DNA from: Gammaproteobacteria bacterium
GTDB lineage: Bacteria; Pseudomonadota; Gammaproteobacteria; Eutrophobiales; Eutrophobiaceae
Assembly: GCA_965116495.1 (NCBI GenBank)
Contig: OZ220696.1
Span: 3,712,001 to 3,776,000 of the forward strand
Length of the DNA stretch: 64,000 bases
Direction of reading: 5' to 3'
A program made the translations under genes and the position numbers. The notes below the pieces were generated by a model. The model was not told the DNA's origin. It saw only the letters and a list, made by a program, of their open reading frames with translations, and searched no databases. Of the stretch, positions 2,413 to 60,361 are shown piece by piece; position 1 is the first letter of the stretch, and each line of letters starts with the position of its first letter.

Positions 2413-2467
2413 AATTTGGGACACCCATGAATTAATAAATATTATTAATTCATGGGTGTCCCAAATT
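2413..2467. repeat. Family A palindrome between convergent genes
   Basis: AATTTGGGACACCCATGAATTAATAA..TTATTAATTCATGGGTGTCCCAAATT. Confidence 0.9.
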
Positions 2468-5866: not shown

Positions 5867-5921
5867 AATTTGGGACACCCATGAATTAATAAATGTTTTA
5901 AATTCATGGGTGTCCCAAATT
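5867..5921. repeat. Family A palindrome
   Basis: AATTTGGGACACCCATGAATT...AATTCATGGGTGTCCCAAATT. Confidence 0.9.
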
Positions 5922-10668: not shown

Positions 10669-10845
10669 GTGCAAGCCTGATTATTCCGGATTATCATTAA
10701 AAATATAGCGCTTCAGCGACCTGAAACGCTTTCAACACGGCAGAATACATGACCGGCATGGAAATGTACAGTTGCATCATGCAACTCGGAGTTAACAGAC
10801 TGGCTTCCGGCGTGCGCCCCCGTCGTCCCTGCCTGTGCCCCCGCC

Positions 10846-12896: not shown

Positions 12897-13064
12897 CATT
12901 CCCGCACAGGCAGGAATCCAATCGTCATACCGACGCAGGCCGGTATCCAGTGGATTCCTGCTTTCGCGGGCATGACGGTCGTCATACCGGCGCAGGCCAG
13001 GGTCCAGTGGATTCCTGCTTTCGCGGGCATGACGGTCGTCATACCGGCGCAGGCCGGTATCCAG
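12897..13064. repeat. BIME-like cluster of alternating family E REPs between convergent dxs and aepY
   Basis: GTCATACCGGCGCAGGCCGGTATCCAG x3 alternating with TGGATTCCTGCTTTCGCGGGCATGAC x2. Confidence 0.9.
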
Positions 13065-13068
13065 TAGA

Positions 13069-14232
13069 TTACTGCCCCAGGAAACTGGTATTGAAATGAC
13101 TCATCAAACGGCGCAGGACGTTTGCGGGTGAGGTGTCGGGGCGGGGCAGTTTACCCGGTGTGCCCGGTCTGATTTTCAGTACTGCGAAGCGCGCGCCGTC
13201 TATGTCCTTGCAGGCATACAGTTCCCTGATCACTCCCGGGCCGTTGCCGTCCAGGGCGAGGCCGTAGCCGCAGGCCGCGGCAATATCCGCAAAGCTGACG
13301 TTGGCCGAGACCGTGGCCTGTGCCCCGGTCGACTCGTGGACGCCGTTGTCCAGCAGAATATGCGCCAGGTTGTTTTGCCCATAACTGCCGATGGTGGAAA
13401 AGTTTCCCATGCGCATGAGAGCGCCGCCGTCCCCGTCGACAACGGTGACCTGCAGGTCCGGCCGCGACAGGGAGACACCCAGGGCAAAGGACGACGCACA
13501 GCCCATGGAACCCACCATGTAGACTTGGTTGCTGCGGTCGTCAATGGCGAACAACTCGCGCCCGGTGTAGCCCGTCGTCCCTACCAGGATAGAGTCCTGT
13601 ACGGGGGTATGGGTGATTATCTCCCTGAGCGCCTGTTCCCGCGTAGTGGAATTCAGCGGTTCCCCGGCAATACTCTCACGCCAGCATTGCACCCCTGTTC
13701 GGGAGGGTATCGACTCGCATTTCAACGGATGCGGGGCGATCGCACCCTGGTCCATAAGCAATGCGTACGGTCTTTGCCGCGCGTCAAAATACCGGGTCAT
13801 CCGTTCCAGCACGGGACCGATGTCCCGCTCTTCCGCCGGAAACGGTTCCCAGGGAATTTCCATCAGGTCGAACAGGTCGCCCGTGATTTTCCCCATCAGT
13901 TCATGCTGCGGCTCATCCCTGCTCCCCGGCTTGCCGCGCCGGGTAACAATCAGCAATACGGGAATGGAAAAAGTATGCGCCAGCGACGTCAACGGATTGA
14001 CCGCGTTGCCCAGTCCCGAATTCTGCATCATGGCCACGGCGCGCTGTCCCCCCACTGCCAGCCCGGCCGCGGCGGCAACCGCATCACCCTCATTGGCGGA
14101 AGAAATATAGGACAGATGATCATCGTTGATAATGTAGTTGATAAACGGTGTCAGGTAAGAACACGGCACCCCGGTATACCGGGTAAATCCATGCCCACGG
14201 GCCACCTCAATGAATGCTTCAGCATTTATCAT
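13069..14232 (-). CDS. aepY: Phosphonopyruvate decarboxylase
   Basis: GVPCSYL, ANEGDAVA, MQNSGLGNAVNPLTSL, DEPQHELMG, YMVGSMGCASS, DGDGGALMRMG. Confidence 0.93.
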   Translation of the reverse strand: MINAEAFIEVARGHGFTRYTGVPCSYLTPFINYIINDDHLSYISSANEGDAVAAAAGLAVGGQRAVAMMQNSGLGNAVNPLTSLAHTFSIPVLLIVTRRGKPGSRDEPQHELMGKITGDLFDLMEIPWEPFPAEERDIGPVLERMTRYFDARQRPYALLMDQGAIAPHPLKCESIPSRTGVQCWRESIAGEPLNSTTREQALREIITHTPVQDSILVGTTGYTGRELFAIDDRSNQVYMVGSMGCASSFALGVSLSRPDLQVTVVDGDGGALMRMGNFSTIGSYGQNNLAHILLDNGVHESTGAQATVSANVSFADIAAACGYGLALDGNGPGVIRELYACKDIDGARFAVLKIRPGTPGKLPRPDTSPANVLRRLMSHFNTSFLGQ

Positions 14233-16127: not shown

Positions 16128-16892
16128 TCATTCCGGCGCATGCCGGAATCCGGTCAAAACACTATTCTCATACATTTTCGCCGCGCGTTCCACGTCGGCG
16201 GGGAAATCTATCTCGATCCAGGCCTGGCCGGTGATATCCTCGAAGTAGAACAGGTGCGGCGTTTCCATCAGCAGGTCACGGATCACTTCTTCGTAAGGTT
16301 CTTCCCTCCGGTTATTATCGAGATAGCTGCGTGCCCGCAAGGCCAGGCGCCTGCACACCGCGGCGTCGAAACGGAAAAAACCCACCGATTCGCCCTGGAA
16401 ATCCCAGGCTATGCCCGGGTCCGGCCTTTTTCTGAATTCCACCGGTATTGTGCCTGACACGCACAGCTTTACCGGCTCGTCGCCTGGCTCAAATTCCCGA
16501 TCCAGCAGGAAACAGTTACTGAAATTCGTATTGAACAGGCGGCCCAGGACCTCCGGGTCGTACAGCACGTCGGCATCCATCAGGATGGTGTCTGTCCCGT
16601 CGGTCAAGAAATCCCGGGCGCAATGCAGGCTCACGACGCTGCCCGCCGCATAGTCCGGATTGACGACGGTTTCGACGCACGCACGGCTTTCGACCTGTTC
16701 CAGCGCCGCATCGATCTGTTCACGGCGGTAGCCGGTAACGATGATTATCCGGTCCGTACCCAGGCCGTCCAGGATTTCCACATGGCGCTGCAGCAGGGAT
16801 TTGCCGCCGAACTGCAGCAGGCATTTCGGCCGGCCCGCGGCAACCTCCCCCAGGCGCTTGCCGCGGCCCGCGGCGAGGATTATCGCTTTCAT
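16128..16892 (-). CDS. LicC/PntC-like (phosphonate/phosphocholine) cytidylyltransferase
   Basis: MKAIILAAGRGKRL, PKCLL, MDADVLYD, GESVGFFRF, WIEIDFPAD; directly upstream of PEP mutase. Confidence 0.85.
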   Translation of the reverse strand: MKAIILAAGRGKRLGEVAAGRPKCLLQFGGKSLLQRHVEILDGLGTDRIIIVTGYRREQIDAALEQVESRACVETVVNPDYAAGSVVSLHCARDFLTDGTDTILMDADVLYDPEVLGRLFNTNFSNCFLLDREFEPGDEPVKLCVSGTIPVEFRKRPDPGIAWDFQGESVGFFRFDAAVCRRLALRARSYLDNNRREEPYEEVIRDLLMETPHLFYFEDITGQAWIEIDFPADVERAAKMYENSVLTGFRHAPE

Positions 16893-18538
16893 GCGCGGCC
16901 GGAACGGTACTTGTTCATCAACTGTTGCGTGGACGAGTCATGGGACGTTTGCGTCTCAACGTTTGCCAGTTCCCCCGCGATGCGGCCCGCCAGGGTCTTA
17001 CCCAGTTCGACCCCCCACTGGTCGAAGGGGTTGATCCCCCAGATGGCGGCTTCGACAAAGGTCTTGTGTTCATACAGGGCCAGCAGCATGCCCAGGGTGT
17101 AGGGGTCGAGCCGGTCGTACAGGATGGTGGTGCTGGGCCTGTTGCCGTCGAAGTGCCGGTGGGGTTCGGCGGGATTGGCCTCGCCCCGCATCAGGGCTTC
17201 ACCCTGAGCCAGGCAGTTGGCGACCAGCAGTTCGTGTTGCCCGCCGGCGTGACGGCTCTCCAGGGGCAGCAGAAAGTCAATGGTTGACAAGCGCGTACCC
17301 TGGTGCAGGAACTGGAAAACGGCATGCTGCGAGTTGCTGCCGACGCCGCCCCAGATGACCTGGGAGGTCTTTGCCTCCACCCTGTTGCCGTGCGCGCTGA
17401 CCGACTTGCCGTTACTCTCCATGACCAGCTGGCTCAGGTACGCCGGCAGTCTTTCCAGCTTTTGATCATAGGGGATAACGGCATGGGCGCCGATGTCACA
17501 AAAATTGTTGTGCCAGATACCAATCAGGCCCAGGATGACGGGAATGTTGCCGCTGAATTCGGCTGTCGCGAAGTGTGAATCAAGCGCGTGCGCGCCGGCC
17601 AGGAACTGCCTGAAATTATCTTCCCCGATGCTGAGAGCGGCGCTCATGCCGACACAGGACCAGATCGAATAGCGCCCGCCGGTCCAGTCCTCGACCCTGA
17701 AGTAACGATCTTTATTGATGCCGAAGCGCTCGACCGCGGCGGCGTTGCCCGACACCGCCAGGAAGTGCCTGCCCGGGTCCTTGCAGCCGTTGTCCCGCAG
17801 CCAGGCTTGCGCGCGTTGCGCGTTGCGCAGGGTTTCCTGTGTCGTGAAGGATTTGGAAGCGACGATAAACAGCGTGGTTTCGGGATGCGCGCGCGCCAGG
17901 GCGCGCTCTATGTCGAAGGGGTCGATGTTGGCAACGAAGTCGATATGTATCCCGTCCTGGTGATAGTCGGACAGCGCCTCTACCAGAAGGCGCGGCCCCA
18001 GGTCAGAGCCGCCGATGCCGATGTTCACCACCCGGGACAGGGGTTTTCCCGTGGCGCCCTCCACCTCTCCGGCGCGTAATCTCTTCACGAACTCGAACAT
18101 CCTGTCCCGCTCCTGTCGCACTTGGCGGGCAATATCGGAGAATTCATGGTTGTCCCAAATTCCGTGTTCCGCAGGAAGGACGAGTTGCTCGTCGTTCCGG
18201 CCTGGTCTTTCTTCACCTTCCGGCACGCGCAACAGGGTATGCAGCGCGGGACGCCGTTCAGTGGTGTTGACCTCGTGACCTGAGAATAAGTCGTCGATCC
18301 GGTTGTGCAGGCCGCGCTGTTCGGCCAGGTCCAGCAACAGTGACAGGGTTTCATCGATGATGAGGTTCTTGGAGAAATCGACGAATACCCGTTCCAGACC
18401 CAGTGAAAACCGTTGTGCCCGCTCCGGATCCAGGGTAAATTCCTCGCGCAGGTGCAGCTGCGCTACCTGCCGCTGGTGTTCTGCAAGCAGGCGCCAGACC
18501 TCTGACTGTTCCGGCGGATTGTTGTTTTGTGCTGCCAT
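16889..18538 (-). CDS. pgi: Glucose-6-phosphate isomerase
   Basis: DFSKN, NIGIGGSDLGP, ASKSFTTQET, GGRYSIWS, QLVMESNGK, INPFDQWGVELGK; start could be 18580. Confidence 0.96.
   Translation of the reverse strand: MAAQNNNPPEQSEVWRLLAEHQRQVAQLHLREEFTLDPERAQRFSLGLERVFVDFSKNLIIDETLSLLLDLAEQRGLHNRIDDLFSGHEVNTTERRPALHTLLRVPEGEERPGRNDEQLVLPAEHGIWDNHEFSDIARQVRQERDRMFEFVKRLRAGEVEGATGKPLSRVVNIGIGGSDLGPRLLVEALSDYHQDGIHIDFVANIDPFDIERALARAHPETTLFIVASKSFTTQETLRNAQRAQAWLRDNGCKDPGRHFLAVSGNAAAVERFGINKDRYFRVEDWTGGRYSIWSCVGMSAALSIGEDNFRQFLAGAHALDSHFATAEFSGNIPVILGLIGIWHNNFCDIGAHAVIPYDQKLERLPAYLSQLVMESNGKSVSAHGNRVEAKTSQVIWGGVGSNSQHAVFQFLHQGTRLSTIDFLLPLESRHAGGQHELLVANCLAQGEALMRGEANPAEPHRHFDGNRPSTTILYDRLDPYTLGMLLALYEHKTFVEAAIWGINPFDQWGVELGKTLAGRIAGELANVETQTSHDSSTQQLMNKYRSGRA
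18141..18161. repeat. Family A repeat arm embedded in frame in pgi
   Basis: AATTCATGGTTGTCCCAAATT, 20/21 identical to intergenic AATTCATGGGTGTCCCAAATT. Confidence 0.8.
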
Positions 18539-20396: not shown

Positions 20397-20618
20397 GGAA
20401 CCTCTGATTAAGTCAGAGGTTCCGACGGTACAGGGATGTGCCGTCAAAATCAATGGCTATATGTCATTGATTTTGGGAGCAAAATAAAATCGCATTTTTG
20501 TTTTCACTCGCTACATCCTGGTAGCTCGCCGCAAGGCGGCAACAAGTTGTGCAAATCGGCTATCCTGCCGATTTGTGCGTGCTCTGACAAGTCTCGGATG
20601 GACTTGATCAGAGCTTCC
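20397..20618 (+). mobile_element. MITE family 1 (IS5-like ends), 222 bp
   Basis: TIRs GGAACCTCTGATTAAGTC / GACTTGATCAGAGCTTCC, no transposase; copies at 31383-31535 and 43617-43836. Confidence 0.85.
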
Positions 20619-20841: not shown

Positions 20842-21258
20842 TTAGGCGATCTCTGCGGTTAATCTGTCAGCAACGATTTGCGCGGTTCGAATCAATGCAT
20901 CCAGCAATCCGGTATCTATGTCAAGATCGCCCTCGTATTCCGCCAGATTACGTTTCCGGTGCGCCTGCTCAAGAATACGCCACTGTTCGTTCGCAATATC
21001 CAGGGTGTGCTTGAGACACTGGAACACAATGTACCGATTCTCTCCCCTGTACCCCAACCTGCGTAGCGCCGCGTGTGACAACGCATGTGCCGCGTTGTAT
21101 GCGAGGTCGAACCGTGACTCGATACTAAGCGATTTATCTTTTGCGTCATGGAGTCTGGCAAGACCGGAGCGCATCAACCCGGCCACCTCTCTCTCCGAAG
21201 ACGGCTCGGCTTTAAGGTGGCCGGTCTTTACCAGGTTGTTTAACTGTTCATGCGGCAC
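20842..21258 (-). CDS. HEPN-like protein (partner of MNT)
   Basis: 138 aa helical; RFDLAYNAAHAL, HRKRNLAEYEG; overlaps upstream MNT gene. Confidence 0.75.
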   Translation of the reverse strand: MPHEQLNNLVKTGHLKAEPSSEREVAGLMRSGLARLHDAKDKSLSIESRFDLAYNAAHALSHAALRRLGYRGENRYIVFQCLKHTLDIANEQWRILEQAHRKRNLAEYEGDLDIDTGLLDALIRTAQIVADRLTAEIA

Positions 21259-24221: not shown

Positions 24222-24360
24222 CAGAACTTAATTTGGGACACCCATAAATTTAGATTTATAGAACTTAATTTGGGACACCCATAAATTTAGATTTATTGAA
24301 AATTCATGGGTGTCCCAAATTGAGATATGTTGAAAATTCATGGGTGTCCCAAATTAAGAT
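24222..24360. repeat. Family A element with both arms tandemly duplicated
   Basis: AGAACTTAATTTGGGACACCCATAAATTTAGATTTAT x2 then TTGAAAATTCATGGGTGTCCCAAATT x2. Confidence 0.9.
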
Positions 24361-26070: not shown

Positions 26071-27354
26071 CTATTTCTGTGAGCGATACAATGCTCGCTC
26101 AAGATCGTTGATCAAATCTTCCGGGTCCTCCAGTCCGACGGACAACCTGACGAGTCCCTGGGTGACGCCGGCTTGTGTCAAGGCGTCGTCGTCCATGCGG
26201 CTGTGGGTGGTTGAGGCCGGGTGTATCACCAGGGATTTGGCGTCGCCTACGTTTGCGAGGTGGGAAAAAACCTTCAGGGACTCGATGAATTTACGGCCAG
26301 CGTCGCGCCCACCCTTCAGTTCAAAACTGAACACCGACCCGCAGCCCCGGGGCAACAGTTTCTGCGCCAGCCCGTAATCACGGTGTGCGGGCAGTTCCGG
26401 GTAGGTGACGTATTCGACGGCCTCGTTATTATTGAGGCACTCAACGGTTTTTCTCGTGTTGGCCACGTGTTTATCCATTCTCAGCGCAAGCGTCTCGACC
26501 CCCTGCAGGATATAGAAGGCATTGCCGGGGCTCAGGGCGGCGCCGAAGTCCCGCAGTCCCTCGCGCCGCGCCCGGTGCAGGAAGGCGTCGGGGCCGAAAT
26601 CCTCGGCAAAATCGATGTCAAGTATCCCGGCACTGGGTTCGGTAAGCGTCGTGAATTTACCGGAAGCATCCCAGTCAAAGCGGCCGGAATCCACGATGAT
26701 ACCGCCGATGGCAACACCGTGGCCGCCGATAAACTTGGTGAGGGAGTGGACTACGATATCCGCGCCGTGGTCGAAGGGTTTCAGCAGGTAGGGCGTGGTC
26801 AGGGTTGAATCCAGCATCAGCGGTATTTGCGCGTCATGGGCAATCCCGGCAATGGTCTCGATATCGAGTACTTCGCAGCGCGGGTTGCCTATGGTTTCGG
26901 CATAAACCATGCGGGTTTCGGGCCGTATGGCCTGCCTGAACGCTTCGGGTTCGCCCGGGTCCACGAAAGTTGTGGTGATGCCGAAACGGGACAGGGTGTA
27001 GGTAAACAGGTTGTGGGTGCCGCCGTACAGGGCATGGGATGACACGATATGGCTGCCGCCGTCCATGAGCGTGCATATCGCCAGGTGGATCGCAGCCATG
27101 CCGCTTGCCGTCGCCACGGCGCCGGTGCCGCCTTCCAGCCCGGCAACGCGTTCTTCCAGTACGGCCACGGTCGGGTTGGAGATACGCGAATACACGTGTC
27201 CTGAGCGGGCCAGGTCAAACATGGAGGATGCCTGGTCCGTTTCCCTGAAAACAAACGACGTGGTCTGGTAGATGGGTGCGGCGCGCGCGCCGGTGACGGG
27301 GTCGGGCCGTTGCCCGCCGTGCAGGCTGATGGTATCAAAGCCGGGATACTTCAT
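26071..27354 (-). CDS. metY: O-acetylhomoserine aminocarboxypropyltransferase
   Basis: PIYQTTSF, YSRISNPT, ASGMAA, HSLTKFIGGHG, HLANVGDAKSLVIHPASTTH. Confidence 0.92.
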   Translation of the reverse strand: MKYPGFDTISLHGGQRPDPVTGARAAPIYQTTSFVFRETDQASSMFDLARSGHVYSRISNPTVAVLEERVAGLEGGTGAVATASGMAAIHLAICTLMDGGSHIVSSHALYGGTHNLFTYTLSRFGITTTFVDPGEPEAFRQAIRPETRMVYAETIGNPRCEVLDIETIAGIAHDAQIPLMLDSTLTTPYLLKPFDHGADIVVHSLTKFIGGHGVAIGGIIVDSGRFDWDASGKFTTLTEPSAGILDIDFAEDFGPDAFLHRARREGLRDFGAALSPGNAFYILQGVETLALRMDKHVANTRKTVECLNNNEAVEYVTYPELPAHRDYGLAQKLLPRGCGSVFSFELKGGRDAGRKFIESLKVFSHLANVGDAKSLVIHPASTTHSRMDDDALTQAGVTQGLVRLSVGLEDPEDLINDLERALYRSQK

Positions 27355-27357
27355 GAC

Positions 27358-27532
27358 AATTACGAATTACGAATTAGGAATTAGGAATGACAATTCAGCA
27401 TTGTATCTGCTACTACCCCCAATTCCTAATTCCTAATTCCTAATTCCTAATTCCTAATTCCTAATTCGTAATTCGTAATTCGTAATTCGTAATTCGTAAT
27501 TCGTAATTCGTAATTCGTAATTCGTAATTCTC
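27358..27532. repeat. Inverted heptamer tandem arrays (family F)
   Basis: (AATTACG)2(AATTAGG)2 ... (AATTCCT)6(AATTCGT)9. Confidence 0.95.
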
Positions 27533-27547
27533 AATTATACTATTGTC

Positions 27548-31382: not shown

Positions 31383-31535
31383 GGAACCTCTGATTAAGTC
31401 AGAGGTTCCTACGATACATGGACGTATCGTCAAAATCAATGACTATATGTCATTGATTTTGGGAGCAAAACAAAAAGCACATTTTTTGTTTTGCGCATTC
31501 TGAACAAGTCCTGGACGGACTTGTTCAGAGTTTCC
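31383..31535 (+). mobile_element. MITE family 1, internally deleted copy (153 bp)
   Basis: GGAACCTCTGATTAAGTC...GACTTGTTCAGAGTTTCC, between acp and spt. Confidence 0.85.
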
Positions 31536-40995: not shown

Positions 40996-41000
40996 AAGGC

Positions 41001-41174
41001 AATTAGGAATTACGAATTAGGAACAGGTGGACTACGTCTCTACGTGCCTCGGTTCGGCGTGCGAAAAACCTGAGGAGCATTGAAAAACCGTCGCCACAGG
41101 TGGCACATTCATTCCTAATTCCTAATTCGTAATTCGTAATTCCTAATTCCTAATTCGTAATTCCTAATTCGTAA
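41001..41174. repeat. Inverted heptamer tandem arrays (family F)
   Basis: AATTAGG/AATTACG x3 ... mixed TTCCTAA/TTCGTAA x9; supplies the stop of the downstream convergent gene. Confidence 0.9.
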
Positions 41175-42066
41175 CTATCCTCTCCCGATCCGGCTCGAAA
41201 TTCTGCGTTTCCCCGTTAAGGATAAATGACCTGATTGAGGTCAGCCAACCGTTCGAGGTCCTGGTTACCTGGTAAATATTGTAGCCTGCCCTTTTATCCG
41301 GGTTTTTGTAACTGGCGGAAGCGGACGGCACGCCGAACACCGGGATTGAGTGGGCGCCGGCCTCGAGTACTGCATGCAACTGGCGGTGCCCGTGACCGTG
41401 AACAATCAGTTCCGCGCCCGGTCCTGACAGGTTCGCCAGCAGCGCGTCCGCATCGGTTAGTCCGCGTCTGAAGCTTGATGATTGTGGACCGTGATGCAGT
41501 ACAACGATGCGGTATAAACCCCGTTGCGCGGTCGTTTCCAGCAGGTGGCTGAGGCGTCGCAACTGTTCATTGCCCAGTTTGCCGCTGGCGAGAAAGGGCG
41601 CCGTGGGTATTGCCGTTGACAGGCCGATGAGCGCCACCGGACCGCGCACCCGCAGGTAGGGAAAGGCGGCGGTGTTGTCGCGTTCACCCGGATCACCCTG
41701 CATATAGGCCCGCCAGCGTCCGGTCGTTTGGGCAAAATCGGTGGCCACGTACTGATCATGATTCCCCGGTATGATTGATACATCACGGGGCTGGCCGGCG
41801 CTGTTTAACCAGGCTTCGGTTTCCCGGCATTCATTTTCCGTGCCCAGGTGGGTAAAGTCGCCGCTGATGACCAGGTGGTCGGCCTGGTGCCGCGCCAGGT
41901 CTGCAAGAGTAAGGGACAGGACTTCCCTGCTGTGCGAGTCACGGCGCTTCAGTTTCCATGAAAGATACCCGAGAATTCGCTTGTTCAGCAAGTCCCACCA
42001 TTTGATGTGGTCCAGCGACGTCAGGTGGGGATCGGAAATGTGGGCAATCTTCAGGCTTGGATTCAC
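41164..42066 (-). CDS. Calcineurin-like metallophosphoesterase
   Basis: HISDPH, SGDFT, IPGNHD, LHH, HGHGH. Confidence 0.92.
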   Translation of the reverse strand: MNPSLKIAHISDPHLTSLDHIKWWDLLNKRILGYLSWKLKRRDSHSREVLSLTLADLARHQADHLVISGDFTHLGTENECRETEAWLNSAGQPRDVSIIPGNHDQYVATDFAQTTGRWRAYMQGDPGERDNTAAFPYLRVRGPVALIGLSTAIPTAPFLASGKLGNEQLRRLSHLLETTAQRGLYRIVVLHHGPQSSSFRRGLTDADALLANLSGPGAELIVHGHGHRQLHAVLEAGAHSIPVFGVPSASASYKNPDKRAGYNIYQVTRTSNGWLTSIRSFILNGETQNFEPDRERIVTN

Positions 42067-42460: not shown

Positions 42461-43627
42461 ATGAATGCGCATGTTCAAATCATCGGCGACAGCCGGACAA
42501 AGATATGGGGGATGACCGGCCGTGAAAGGCTGGTCCGTATGCTGGACAGGAGCGCCGGCGTGGAAATCACTGCTCCGGGGGAGAGATTGCCGTCCGGCGC
42601 GCCGGTCATTTTTCTCAGAGGAGATTACCTGTTCGATGCCCGGGTATTGCAGGCTGTTACGGGTCTGGACGGCGAGTTTGTCCTGTACAGGCAGGATGGC
42701 CGGACTGCCGTTGCCATCCGCACAAACGACCCTGACGAAAACATATTCAATCGTGACCATTACCCGGAAGCATTAGAAAGAATTAGGCTGGATGACCTGG
42801 TCAATCCGTACAACGAGCGGTTGAAAAAATATGAACAGGCCAAGGTCTGGCAGATTAAGCCTGACAACCGGGATTTTCTTGAGCAGGAGCTGTTCAGTGG
42901 TTCCTACAAAGGCGTAACCGACCTGGTGACCAAATGGGTCTGGCCCCTGCCCGCAAGGTGGGCGACAAAAATGTGTGCCAGGCTTGGTTTGAAACCGAAC
43001 CACGTGACCATATTCAGCCTGGTGCTGGCAATCCTGGCCGGCATTGCCTTCTGGTATGGGGAATACGCCGGCGGCCTGTTGCTGGGCTGGTTAATGACCT
43101 TCCTGGATACCGTGGACGGCAAGCTGGCCAGGGTGACGCTGACCTCGAGCCGTTTCGGTGACCTGCTGGACCATGGCCTGGACCTGGTACATCCGCCGCT
43201 CTGGTATGTTGCCTGGGGGGTGGGATTGGCCGCGCAGACGCCGTTGCCGGGGTCGTTGGCAATGCTGTTGTGGCTGATGTTCGGCGCGTATGTCTGTGGC
43301 CGTCTGTGTGAAGGAGTGTTTCAGCATTACATTGCCGATTTCTCTATCTTCATGTGGCGGCCTGTTGATTCACTGAGCCGCCTGATTACTGCCCGGCGTA
43401 ATCCGAATATGCTGATATTGACGGCCGCGGTGATGGCCGGGCGGCCCGACACCGGGCTGGTGCTCATCATCGCCTGGCACCTGCTGTCCACCCTGTTCCT
43501 GATCATCAGGCTCGCTGTTGCCTGGCAGGCGAGCCGGAACCAGGGGCCGCTGGAGAGTTGGCTGGAACGGGTCGGACCGGAAACCCGGCACAACAGGGTG
43601 GCTGTGAAGATGTTCAGGAAGCTCTGA
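42461..43627 (+). CDS. CDP-alcohol phosphatidyltransferase family (CpgA-like)
   Basis: SYKGVTDLVTKWVWP, PNHVT, FLDTVDGKLARVT..GDLLDHGLD (DGxxAR motif), ITARRNPN. Confidence 0.88.
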   Translation: MNAHVQIIGDSRTKIWGMTGRERLVRMLDRSAGVEITAPGERLPSGAPVIFLRGDYLFDARVLQAVTGLDGEFVLYRQDGRTAVAIRTNDPDENIFNRDHYPEALERIRLDDLVNPYNERLKKYEQAKVWQIKPDNRDFLEQELFSGSYKGVTDLVTKWVWPLPARWATKMCARLGLKPNHVTIFSLVLAILAGIAFWYGEYAGGLLLGWLMTFLDTVDGKLARVTLTSSRFGDLLDHGLDLVHPPLWYVAWGVGLAAQTPLPGSLAMLLWLMFGAYVCGRLCEGVFQHYIADFSIFMWRPVDSLSRLITARRNPNMLILTAAVMAGRPDTGLVLIIAWHLLSTLFLIIRLAVAWQASRNQGPLESWLERVGPETRHNRVAVKMFRKL

Positions 43628-43836
43628 TTAAGTCCGTCCGGGACTTGTCAGAACACGCACAAATCGGCGGGATAGCCGATTTGCACAACTTGTTGCCGCC
43701 TTGCGGCGAGCTACCAGGATGTAGCGAGTGAAAACAAAAATGCGATTTTTGTTTTGCTCCCAAAATCAATGACCTACAGTCATTGATTTTGACGGCACAT
43801 CCCTGTACTGTAGGAACCTCTGACTTAAGAGGTTCC
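43617..43836 (-). mobile_element. MITE family 1, inverted full-length copy
   Basis: Reverse complement of 20397-20618 element; provides the TGA stop of the upstream gene. Confidence 0.85.
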
Positions 43837-45545: not shown

Positions 45546-45606
45546 GTAAATTTGGGACACCCATAAATTAACGAAAATTGTAAATTTATGGGTGTCCCAA
45601 ATTTAC
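45546..45606. repeat. Family A palindrome overlapping cofD stop codon
   Basis: GTAAATTTGGGACACCCATAAATT...AATTTATGGGTGTCCCAAATTTAC. Confidence 0.9.
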
Positions 45607-59665: not shown

Positions 59666-60361
59666 TCAGCCAAACGATCTGGGACGGAACGAATCCTTGT
59701 TGATAATGCTGGCGCTGTCCCCCGTCGCCCGTATCACGAATAAGCCCTGACGCTCGGCAAATACAGCCGCCGACTCGTCTGCGCGCAGGTAAGCCATCGC
59801 GCCATACACCCGGTCGCGCTGGTATCGCCACTCCCGTTGCTTGAAAAACTCTATGCCTGCCAGAAATGCGCGCACATCAGCCACTTTCATGGTAGTCTTC
59901 ACCTCTACCACTACCACCACCTCGCCATTATGTGCAACAACGTCGTATTCCCATTGTGCTGCGCCGCGCTGACCCCTGACTCTCGTGGATGTGTGATAAA
60001 CATCAATGTTCCGGGCCTGTAACAGTTCAACGAGTTTGCCTTCAACCAGGCTCTCCACCAGCTTGCCCCACTGACTGGTAAATAACTCTTCGGCCTTTTT
60101 CAGACGTATGTCGGCTTCCTTTGCCCGCTTGTCAGCTTCCTGCGATCGTTTGCGATCTTCCTCCGCTCGCTTGCGGTTTTCCTCCGCGGTTTCGGCCATG
60201 AGCCGTCTGACTTCCCGGATTTCCTGCTCTGTCTTTTGACGGTCTTGCTCTCGCTTTTCTTCAGCCTGTTCGGCAGCCTCTTTCTGCTTCCGGGTGATTT
60301 CGCGCAGGACAGCCCAGATTTCCTCCGGGGTGGCAGGGGGTTGTTCAGTATAAGCACTCAT
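59666..60361 (-). CDS. Coiled-coil + PD-(D/E)XK nuclease-like protein (DUF3782-like)
   Basis: ATPEEIWAVLRE, heptad-rich segment, QWGKLVESLV, EYDVVA..VVEVK, GLFVIRATGDSA. Confidence 0.75.
   Translation of the reverse strand: MSAYTEQPPATPEEIWAVLREITRKQKEAAEQAEEKREQDRQKTEQEIREVRRLMAETAEENRKRAEEDRKRSQEADKRAKEADIRLKKAEELFTSQWGKLVESLVEGKLVELLQARNIDVYHTSTRVRGQRGAAQWEYDVVAHNGEVVVVVEVKTTMKVADVRAFLAGIEFFKQREWRYQRDRVYGAMAYLRADESAAVFAERQGLFVIRATGDSASIINKDSFRPRSFG

Follow-up and report, generated by a model that had tools for sequence, protein, structure and literature searches.

Intergenic hairpin repeats in frame within a lengthened loop of a gammaproteobacterial glucose-6-phosphate isomerase

We describe here the glucose-6-phosphate isomerase gene (pgi) found in a stretch of 64,000 nucleotides from an uncultured gammaproteobacterium of the family Eutrophobiaceae (NCBI GenBank assembly GCA_965116495.1, contig OZ220696.1, positions 3,712,001 to 3,776,000 of the forward strand), the whole of which is referred to below as the window. 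The source genome of the window, designated G000, is a single contig of 4.34 Mb with 54.7% G+C; the other G-numbers denote its relatives. In our view it is highly probable that this gene carries in frame one near-perfect arm of an intergenic palindromic repeat (family A), together with a decayed pair of a second, CGTC/NTS-type repeat (family B), and that both are translated as a predicted disordered, tolerated loop. The insert is built from two repeat families that otherwise occupy intergenic gaps. That it is likely to be translated into Pgi is a reading of the sequence, made because the reading frame is conserved. The features concerned are as follows, with coordinates counted from the first letter of the window.

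16889..18538, minus strand: pgi, glucose-6-phosphate isomerase, 549 amino acids plus stop, start MAAQNNN (open reading frame and PF00342 match).
18140..18226, minus strand: rewritten loop, residues V105–F133, between ALHTLLR and SDIARQ, 18 residues over the canonical length (alignments).
18141..18161, minus strand: single family A arm, 20/21 to the consensus, read IWDNHEF, residues 127–133.
18159..18181, minus strand: decayed family B hairpin GTCCTTCCTGCGGAACACGGAAT, read VLPAEHG (family B pattern, two substitutions).
18190..18207, plus strand: family B half-unit CGTCGTTCCGGCCTGGTC, coding strand RPGRNDE (exact 13-mer; 16/18 to the array unit).

Residues 54–540 of Pgi match PF00342 over profile positions 1–485 of 486 (E 3e-164), chains of glucose-6-phosphate isomerase (PGI) in the PDB match it at E 4e-143, and its start MAAQNNN is consistent with those of the orthologues. 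A protein search of G000 returned a single match to Pgi. The motifs GGRYS, MESNGK, QH and GVELGK, which we take to be the catalytic motifs of PGI, are invariant in 29/29 aligned sequences.

The arm in pgi reads AATTCATGGTTGTCCCAAATT on the plus strand of the window and is one base off the consensus arm AATTCATGGGTGTCCCAAATT. Its reverse complement, gA ATT TGG GAC AAC CAT GAA TTc, encodes IWDNHEF; both the 20/21 match and the peptide had been reported in the initial annotation and are confirmed. There are 113 family A arms in G000 at no more than one mismatch and 210 at no more than four, with none in the reversed genome at any threshold, and the window alone holds 12 arms at no more than three mismatches versus none expected from 100 shuffles. 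The 20/21 match in pgi is not due to chance.

The standard family A unit consists of two inverted arms with a 13-nt gap (exactly 34 nt in 47 neighbour spacings), giving doublets of 55 nt with a variable AT-rich spacer. Folding of a doublet gives −37.7 kcal/mol (z −9.3). The predicted fold of a lone arm is no more stable than that of shuffled sequence (−2.5 to −3.6 kcal/mol, z −0.5 to −0.7), and the idea that every arm is its own hairpin was rejected (z −0.45 for a single arm). The pgi copy is among the 28 singletons in the 210 arms of G000, and hand translation of the arm leaves five of its six frames open. About half of the arms (108/210, 51%) are concentrated in 4.8% of the genome, a 210-kb zone at 3.55–3.76 Mb that also includes pgi (3.729–3.731 Mb). 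A 44-kb sample of the zone (3.596–3.640 Mb) contains long open reading frames (ORFs), and many of the gaps between them hold repeats of families A and B. Judged by N-terminal sequence, these ORFs presumably include metG, rnf genes, surA and lptD and have a housekeeping look; an integron-like cassette array, considered as an explanation of the repeat-dense zone, is ruled out by such long ORFs with repeats between them.

The remainder of the insert is accounted for by family B, a CGTC-tagged, NTS-like hairpin of the form CGTCATTCCNGC-loop-GCNGGAATCC. The core pattern used to locate it begins at GTC, with the first C of the CGTC tag outside the pattern. It has 193 matches in G000 at no more than one substitution, compared with none in the reversed-genome control; at two substitutions the reversed genome gives 13 matches, so that about 2e-4 would be expected by chance inside the pgi insert. 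Family B copies begin CGTCATTCC, have an 8-bp stem and are in many cases intergenic, as in the CGTC-tagged superfamily of repetitive extragenic palindromic (REP) sequences. On the coding strand the pgi loop is made up, in order, of CCAGGCCGGAACGACG (RPGRNDE), AGCAACT, CGTCCTTCCTGCGGAACACGGAAT (VLPAEHG) and the arm, and by folding the segments 18159–18181 and 18190–18207 form a tail-to-tail palindrome. The exact 13-mer CGTCGTTCCGGCC (window 18190–18202) occurs four times in G000 and not at all in the reversed control; the three copies outside pgi belong to an array in which 18-nt half-units immediately precede an ssnA-like gene at 3.675 Mb, 55 kb from pgi. Intergenic clusters with the same order of parts (family B tail, short spacer ending GGAAT, arm) are found at positions 3682170 and 3607746 of G000. 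The proposal that a core enzyme gains peptide sequence from a non-coding repeat family is thus supported, and it extends to the rest of the insert, which is repeat-derived too.

The segment from ALH to RMF comprises 51 amino acids in the Pgi of G000, 33 in the three members of the genus with a canonical loop and 32–34 in seven outgroups. The loop is therefore exactly 18 residues longer, where about 18 had been estimated from the sequence of the window. The HMMER alignment with mouse PGI places a 16-residue gap at this position. The prediction from AlphaFold2, run with the 29-sequence alignment, has a normal PGI fold with a mean predicted local distance difference test score (pLDDT) of 84.1 and a predicted template modelling score of 0.87. 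Residues 112–129, which are family B-derived, are the sole long stretch below 50 (pLDDT about 39–41), and a predicted helix (residues 130–155) starts within the arm peptide.

Contigs from runs X1 and X3, both of study P1 and perhaps of the source sample itself, span the loop region with no differences, and a contig from X5 (a different study, P2) covers 18063–18310, also with no differences. As the loop is identical in contigs of two studies, it is not an assembly artefact. A relative in X6, about 95% identical, has two in-frame changes, namely a tandem duplication of 18132–18161 plus 3 nt (33 nt in all) and an addition of 12 nt at 18201–18203. In a second relative, found in X5, 114 letters are replaced by 81 others.

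Comparison with the 22 other species of the genus, each of which has one intact pgi frame without internal stops, shows that the loop has been rewritten in 19 of them. The new sequences differ by lineage, are always in frame and involve at least three unrelated repeat families, while the rest of Pgi stays 59–81% identical. The canonical segment, xxSLxxDGVD, is retained in G010, G013 and G017 and in the seven outgroups that were fetched. In G020, G002, G012, G018, G021 and G008 the peptide I[HQR]DTH[GVE]LS stands in register with IWDNHEFS, and a hand count for these six species gives 14–19/21 matches of the underlying DNA to the arm or to its TCAGG variant. Peptides of the type DSG[IL][RA]RN, corresponding to family B read in frame, are found in G003, G001, G006 and G011, with a whole inverted family B pair in G001. 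The loops of G014, G022 and G016 have a B-like look. The loop of G004 contains three to four 20-nt arm-like units that are read in all three frames; no other copy of the 20-nt unit and no family A arm was found in that genome.

In G019 the loop holds, in frame, a member of a third family, family C, in the form of a perfect palindrome of 63 nt (locus L007, G019:C1:1740172-1740234), with arms AATAGGGGACAGACCACGTTTT that both match at 22/22. Family C has 71 copies in G019, none in two sister genomes and five weak matches in G000. The family C arm bears the motif GGGGWSAS, and a similar sequence, GGGGTCAGACCAG, adjoins the sole Y1 gene of G019.

Family A itself is present in 18 of the 23 genus genomes, with 0 to 279 copies per genome; the TTGGG variant is dominant in G000 and the TCAGG variant is common in genomes of the sister lineages. 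An identical loop in genomes without the family would have spoken against a repeat origin, and none of the five arm-free genomes has the G000 loop sequence: the loop is canonical in G013 and B-like in G006 and G011, and in G004 and G009 it holds different, decayed arm-like relics. In a Pgi tree calculated with the loop columns masked, the canonical-loop species G010, G013 and G017 branch first and all 19 species with a rewritten loop fall into one clade.

Repeats in frame are not confined to Pgi. Family A arms lie in long open frames in 35 of 210 cases in G000; nine of these frames were read, and two of them, together with Pgi, were run against Pfam. In most of the nine the arm precedes the probable start codon or the frame looks spurious. 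The all-frame scan that had been recommended nevertheless places the arm in frame within two further real proteins of G000. The first is a 3HCDH_N/3HCDH/ECH fusion protein with three family A modules, NLG[HQ]P[QE]I. Across the genus, 11 intact orthologues of this protein have one to five N[LS]G[HQ]PQI modules and two more have none: apart from G000 itself, there is one module in G002, G012 and G020, two in G022, G008, G014 and G018, three in G016 and G015 and five in G007, and there are none in G004 and G005. We note that the corresponding gene of G019 (L129/L140, G019:C1:1552300-1554511) lies in two frames, with one TGA located precisely at its series of family A arms. The break may be due to the repeat tract.

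The second is a PaaA_PaaC-family protein in which an exact arm of the TCAGG variant is read IYGCPEF. Among the 13 genomes with this gene, eight have Y[FY][DE]LPEF and five have the arm at the same seven codons, with equal protein length. In the gene tree a single origin of the arm is not rejected (p = 0.265 in the approximately unbiased test).

Family B gave 56 hits in long frames with the pattern at two substitutions, a number that does not equal the count of real insertions because this setting also catches chance matches (the 13 of the control). Ten of the frames were translated and eight scanned with Pfam, and in all eight scanned proteins family B is in frame with Pfam matches around it. 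The hosts are XdhC, an E2 acyltransferase (in its linker), a HemN-like radical SAM protein, a TPR-sulfotransferase, a CoxM-CoxS fusion, an Lhr helicase, PEP carboxylase and an MMPL protein. Six of the eight have separate Pfam domains on either side of the repeat, PEP carboxylase has one domain match that runs across it, and for MMPL one of two matched stretches is listed. In the CoxM-CoxS case a CoxM-like FAD subunit and a CoxS-like 2Fe-2S subunit of the CO-dehydrogenase type form one frame (G000:C1:3282099-3283550, L182), the junction of which is a family B doublet read RHSGTNRNP...DPGLRRND. The two genes may have fused here by way of a repeat that once lay between them.

The course of events that we propose is as follows. 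A composite B-plus-A cluster of the intergenic kind would have entered the Pgi loop at about the root of the 19-species clade, after which each lineage would have altered the loop by point decay, deletion and slippage. Slippage may be represented by the three 20-nt units of G004 and by the 33-nt tandem duplication of the strain that is about 95% identical, while the palindrome of G019 would be a fresh insertion. Selection would have acted as a filter only, passing copies whose net length is divisible by three, that are read in a stop-free frame and that lie in a loop or linker tolerant of them.

Several observations weigh against this interpretation. Translation is predicted from the conserved reading frame. 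The arm of G000 matches at 20/21, yet the positionally equivalent arms of the sister species match at only 14–19/21, which fits badly with one old, decayed insertion and calls for a recent second insertion or for gene conversion. The single ancestral event depends on a clade with a support of 85 in the Shimodaira–Hasegawa-like approximate likelihood ratio test, within which several inner forks lack resolution. The overwriting of PaaA_PaaC at the same length is left unexplained by plain insertion. Finally, no enzyme mobilizing family A was found: of 27 Y1-transposase loci in 15 genomes, none has an arm within 1.5 kb.

The alternative that best survives is that the pgi arm was re-templated by gene conversion, or inserted anew, into a loop that was already repeat-derived, and that repeats keep overwriting coding DNA. 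We hold this to be an appreciable, though clearly the less probable, possibility. The arm matches at 20/21 the TTGGG variant that is dominant in G000, and the 14–19/21 copies of the sister species resemble the TCAGG variant that is common in their own genomes; this pattern could, however, be plain phylogeny. In PaaA_PaaC an exact arm has taken the place of seven native codons with no change in length, but it is of the TCAGG variant although the copies listed are mostly TTGGG (G000 and G016 only), so that this copy has not been homogenized. In the strain that is about 95% identical, no letter differences are listed within the arm. No conversion tract or donor copy was identified, and the AAC sub-variant present in pgi is found elsewhere too and so indicates no donor.

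A broader form of this idea would make the repeats a standing generator of protein variation. Conversion-like templated copying would overwrite native codons at equal length and keep arms like the current variant, modules of seven residues would expand and contract, and the Pgi loop would be a genus-wide landing pad for at least three families, a resident repeat possibly attracting the next. We regard this as unlikely, if worth stating.

It is very improbable that the arm is retained in pgi as a DNA or RNA site (for protein binding, as an uptake-type signal or as a regulatory hairpin) with the peptide as a by-product. Uptake sequences of other bacteria occur in coding DNA without altering its length, and the same-length arm of PaaA_PaaC resembles them in this respect; the arm in pgi is, moreover, near-perfect. 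Against this, the site is not conserved as DNA in the genus, where decayed arms, other families or no repeat at all are found in its place, and a single arm lacks any folding advantage over shuffled sequence. In their clustering (51% within 4.8% of the genome) and in a number that varies from 0 to 279 per genome, the copies also differ from uptake signals. That the match is due to chance, to misassembly at a repeat or to a dead pgi is hardly credible, since beyond the general risk of error in metagenome-assembled genomes nothing favours it, while the controls are free of chance matches, two studies give identical contigs, and the frame is intact in the sole pgi match of G000, with invariant catalytic motifs.

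Two candidate movers of family A were considered and rejected. The first was a RAYT or TIRYT transposase: neither an arm nor its 10-nt core lies within 1.5 kb of any of the 27 PF01797 loci, which are spread over 15 of the 23 genus genomes. The intact Y1 transposase of G000 (G000:C1:403640-403963, L032, ORF 1435–2295) lies between inverted copies of ATGGGGTCAGGTCGCACAATGCACA, which carry the GGGGWSAS motif, and the same arrangement of a Y1 gene with flanking repeats is seen in several genomes of the genus. The element at L032 is TIRYT-like and is unrelated to families A and B. The second candidate was an Hjc-like PD-(D/E)XK nuclease. Four tandem paralogues of about 190 amino acids, each bracketed by family A and B repeats, are located at G000:C1:3633549-3636471 (L188), with a further copy at 59669–60220 of the window. 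By sequence reading these have an N-terminal coiled coil, and they give a weak Hjc-like match just above the Pfam cut-off. Such matches number ten in G000 and 0–29 in each genome of the genus, the three canonical-loop species have none, and the matches show no consistent link to the repeat (12 matches and no arms in G011; no matches and 75 arms in G010).

For family B a candidate partner is present. An ORF of 96 amino acids with a single GIY-YIG domain (PF01541) lies outside the window at G000:C1:3675106-3675393 (locus L186). Its upstream flank contains four 18-nt half-units, three of which are CGTCGTTCCGGCCCAATC, and a full family B hairpin, and another full hairpin lies downstream; G000 thus has the SRM-ssnA-SRM layout, with repeats on both sides of a small GIY-YIG gene. 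The protein has no NCBIfam match at the cut-off, and PF01541 is its sole Pfam match. In the Neisseria system described by Chenal et al. 2025 (PMC11893778), NTS/SRM hairpins go together with Ssn GIY-YIG single-strand nucleases in this layout. The family B sequence CGTCATTCCGGCGCAGGCCGGAATCCAG fits the NTS motif given there, CGTCATTCCCGCGMAVGCGGGAATCYRG, save for paired changes in the stem, and the gene in G000, which encodes a putative nuclease, shares the arrangement. By this analogy, family B appears to be of the type tied to Ssn nucleases. Family A is unrelated to the NTS of that account.

The closest precedent for the pgi insert is provided by Di Nocera, De Gregorio and Rocco 2013 (PMC3733652), who describe intergenic stem-loop REPs of 20–40 bp, single or as dimers, that are also found in frame within known proteins. 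In their account intragenic dimers and grouped repeats encode 20–30 amino acids, two Xanthomonas species have different REPs at roughly one position of recB, CGTC REPs are presented as lacking a dedicated transposase and the GGGGWSAS motif is tied to TIRYT transposases. Family B is like these REPs in being CGTC-tagged. Family A, unlike the GTAG and CGTC REPs described there, has neither tag, and its arms begin and end with AATT. What goes beyond the examples given in that work is the host gene pgi, the rewriting of one loop in 19 of 22 genus species by at least three families, and the behaviour of family A both as a seven-residue module of variable copy number and as a same-length overwrite.

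The initial annotation had cited the Rickettsia palindromic elements (RPE) as the precedent. The likeness stands as regards in-frame insertion, since these elements (Ogata et al. 2000, via PMC3184786 and PMC3733652) are in-frame palindromic repeats tolerated in many unrelated proteins. As the closest precedent RPE-1 gives way to the short intragenic GTAG/CGTC REPs of PMC3733652. RPE-1 is described as about 105–146 bp in length and Rickettsia-specific (PMC3184786); the units here are of 21–23 nt. The likeness is one of behaviour only, and both size and host argue against membership. RPE-4 and RPE-6 are of the CGTC class, as is family B; otherwise the RPE, as far as those accounts present them, are unrelated in sequence. 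Like the REP/REPIN-RAYT systems and BIMEs, family A arms form intergenic inverted doublets and arrays, but they have no GTAG tag and, as noted above, no nearby Y1 transposase.

In the literature searched we found nothing on pgi or on this lineage, although the supplementary gene list of PMC3733652 may name pgi for another species. Intragenic REPs, including different REPs at one site of a gene, are already known from the accounts in PMC3733652 and PMC3184786, and Pgi is a clear new example of the phenomenon and not a new phenomenon. The noteworthy aspects are the genus-wide hot spot used by three families, the seven-residue module of variable copy number and the same-length overwrite.

The other repeats of the window are listed below.

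2413..2467, no strand assigned: family A doublet of the typical intergenic form, with 13 nt between the arm and its inverted partner; this is the one with the fold of −37.7 kcal/mol (z −9.3).
281–301, 5867–5921, 24230–24355 and 45549–45603: other family A copies (arm matches).
12922..13092, no strand assigned: example of an intergenic family B cluster (repeat families D2, D5 and D7).
Starts at 10842, 16126, 30059, 31869, 38665, 47455 and 58184: further family B copies (families D2, D5 and D7).

Besides these, heptamer arrays of the form (AATTCGT/AATTCCT)n with short inverted runs are present at 27354–27546 and 41000–41179. A repeat of 90–140 nt with an internal palindrome, CAAAATCAATG...CATTGATTTTG, occurs at 20397–20618, 31383–31491 and 43617–43828, with one copy inverted and 88–95% identity. 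The small gene at 20842–21258, beside one of these copies, is presumably, from its sequence, a HEPN-like toxin–antitoxin component.

The pgi gene described here offers a well-controlled example of selfish hairpin repeats becoming protein sequence in a core metabolic enzyme, in a free-standing genome of 4.3 Mb and not a reduced intracellular one. The peptides IWDTHEF, NLGHPQI, DSGLRRND, VIPAQAGI and SFPRKRES serve as markers of repeat-derived segments, and alignments, trees and structure models for these organisms should be built with such segments masked. The genus presents a series of stages at one site (the canonical loop, a fresh perfect palindrome, decayed relics after loss of the family, and slippage products in three frames) that could serve to measure the rate at which such inserts are gained and decay.

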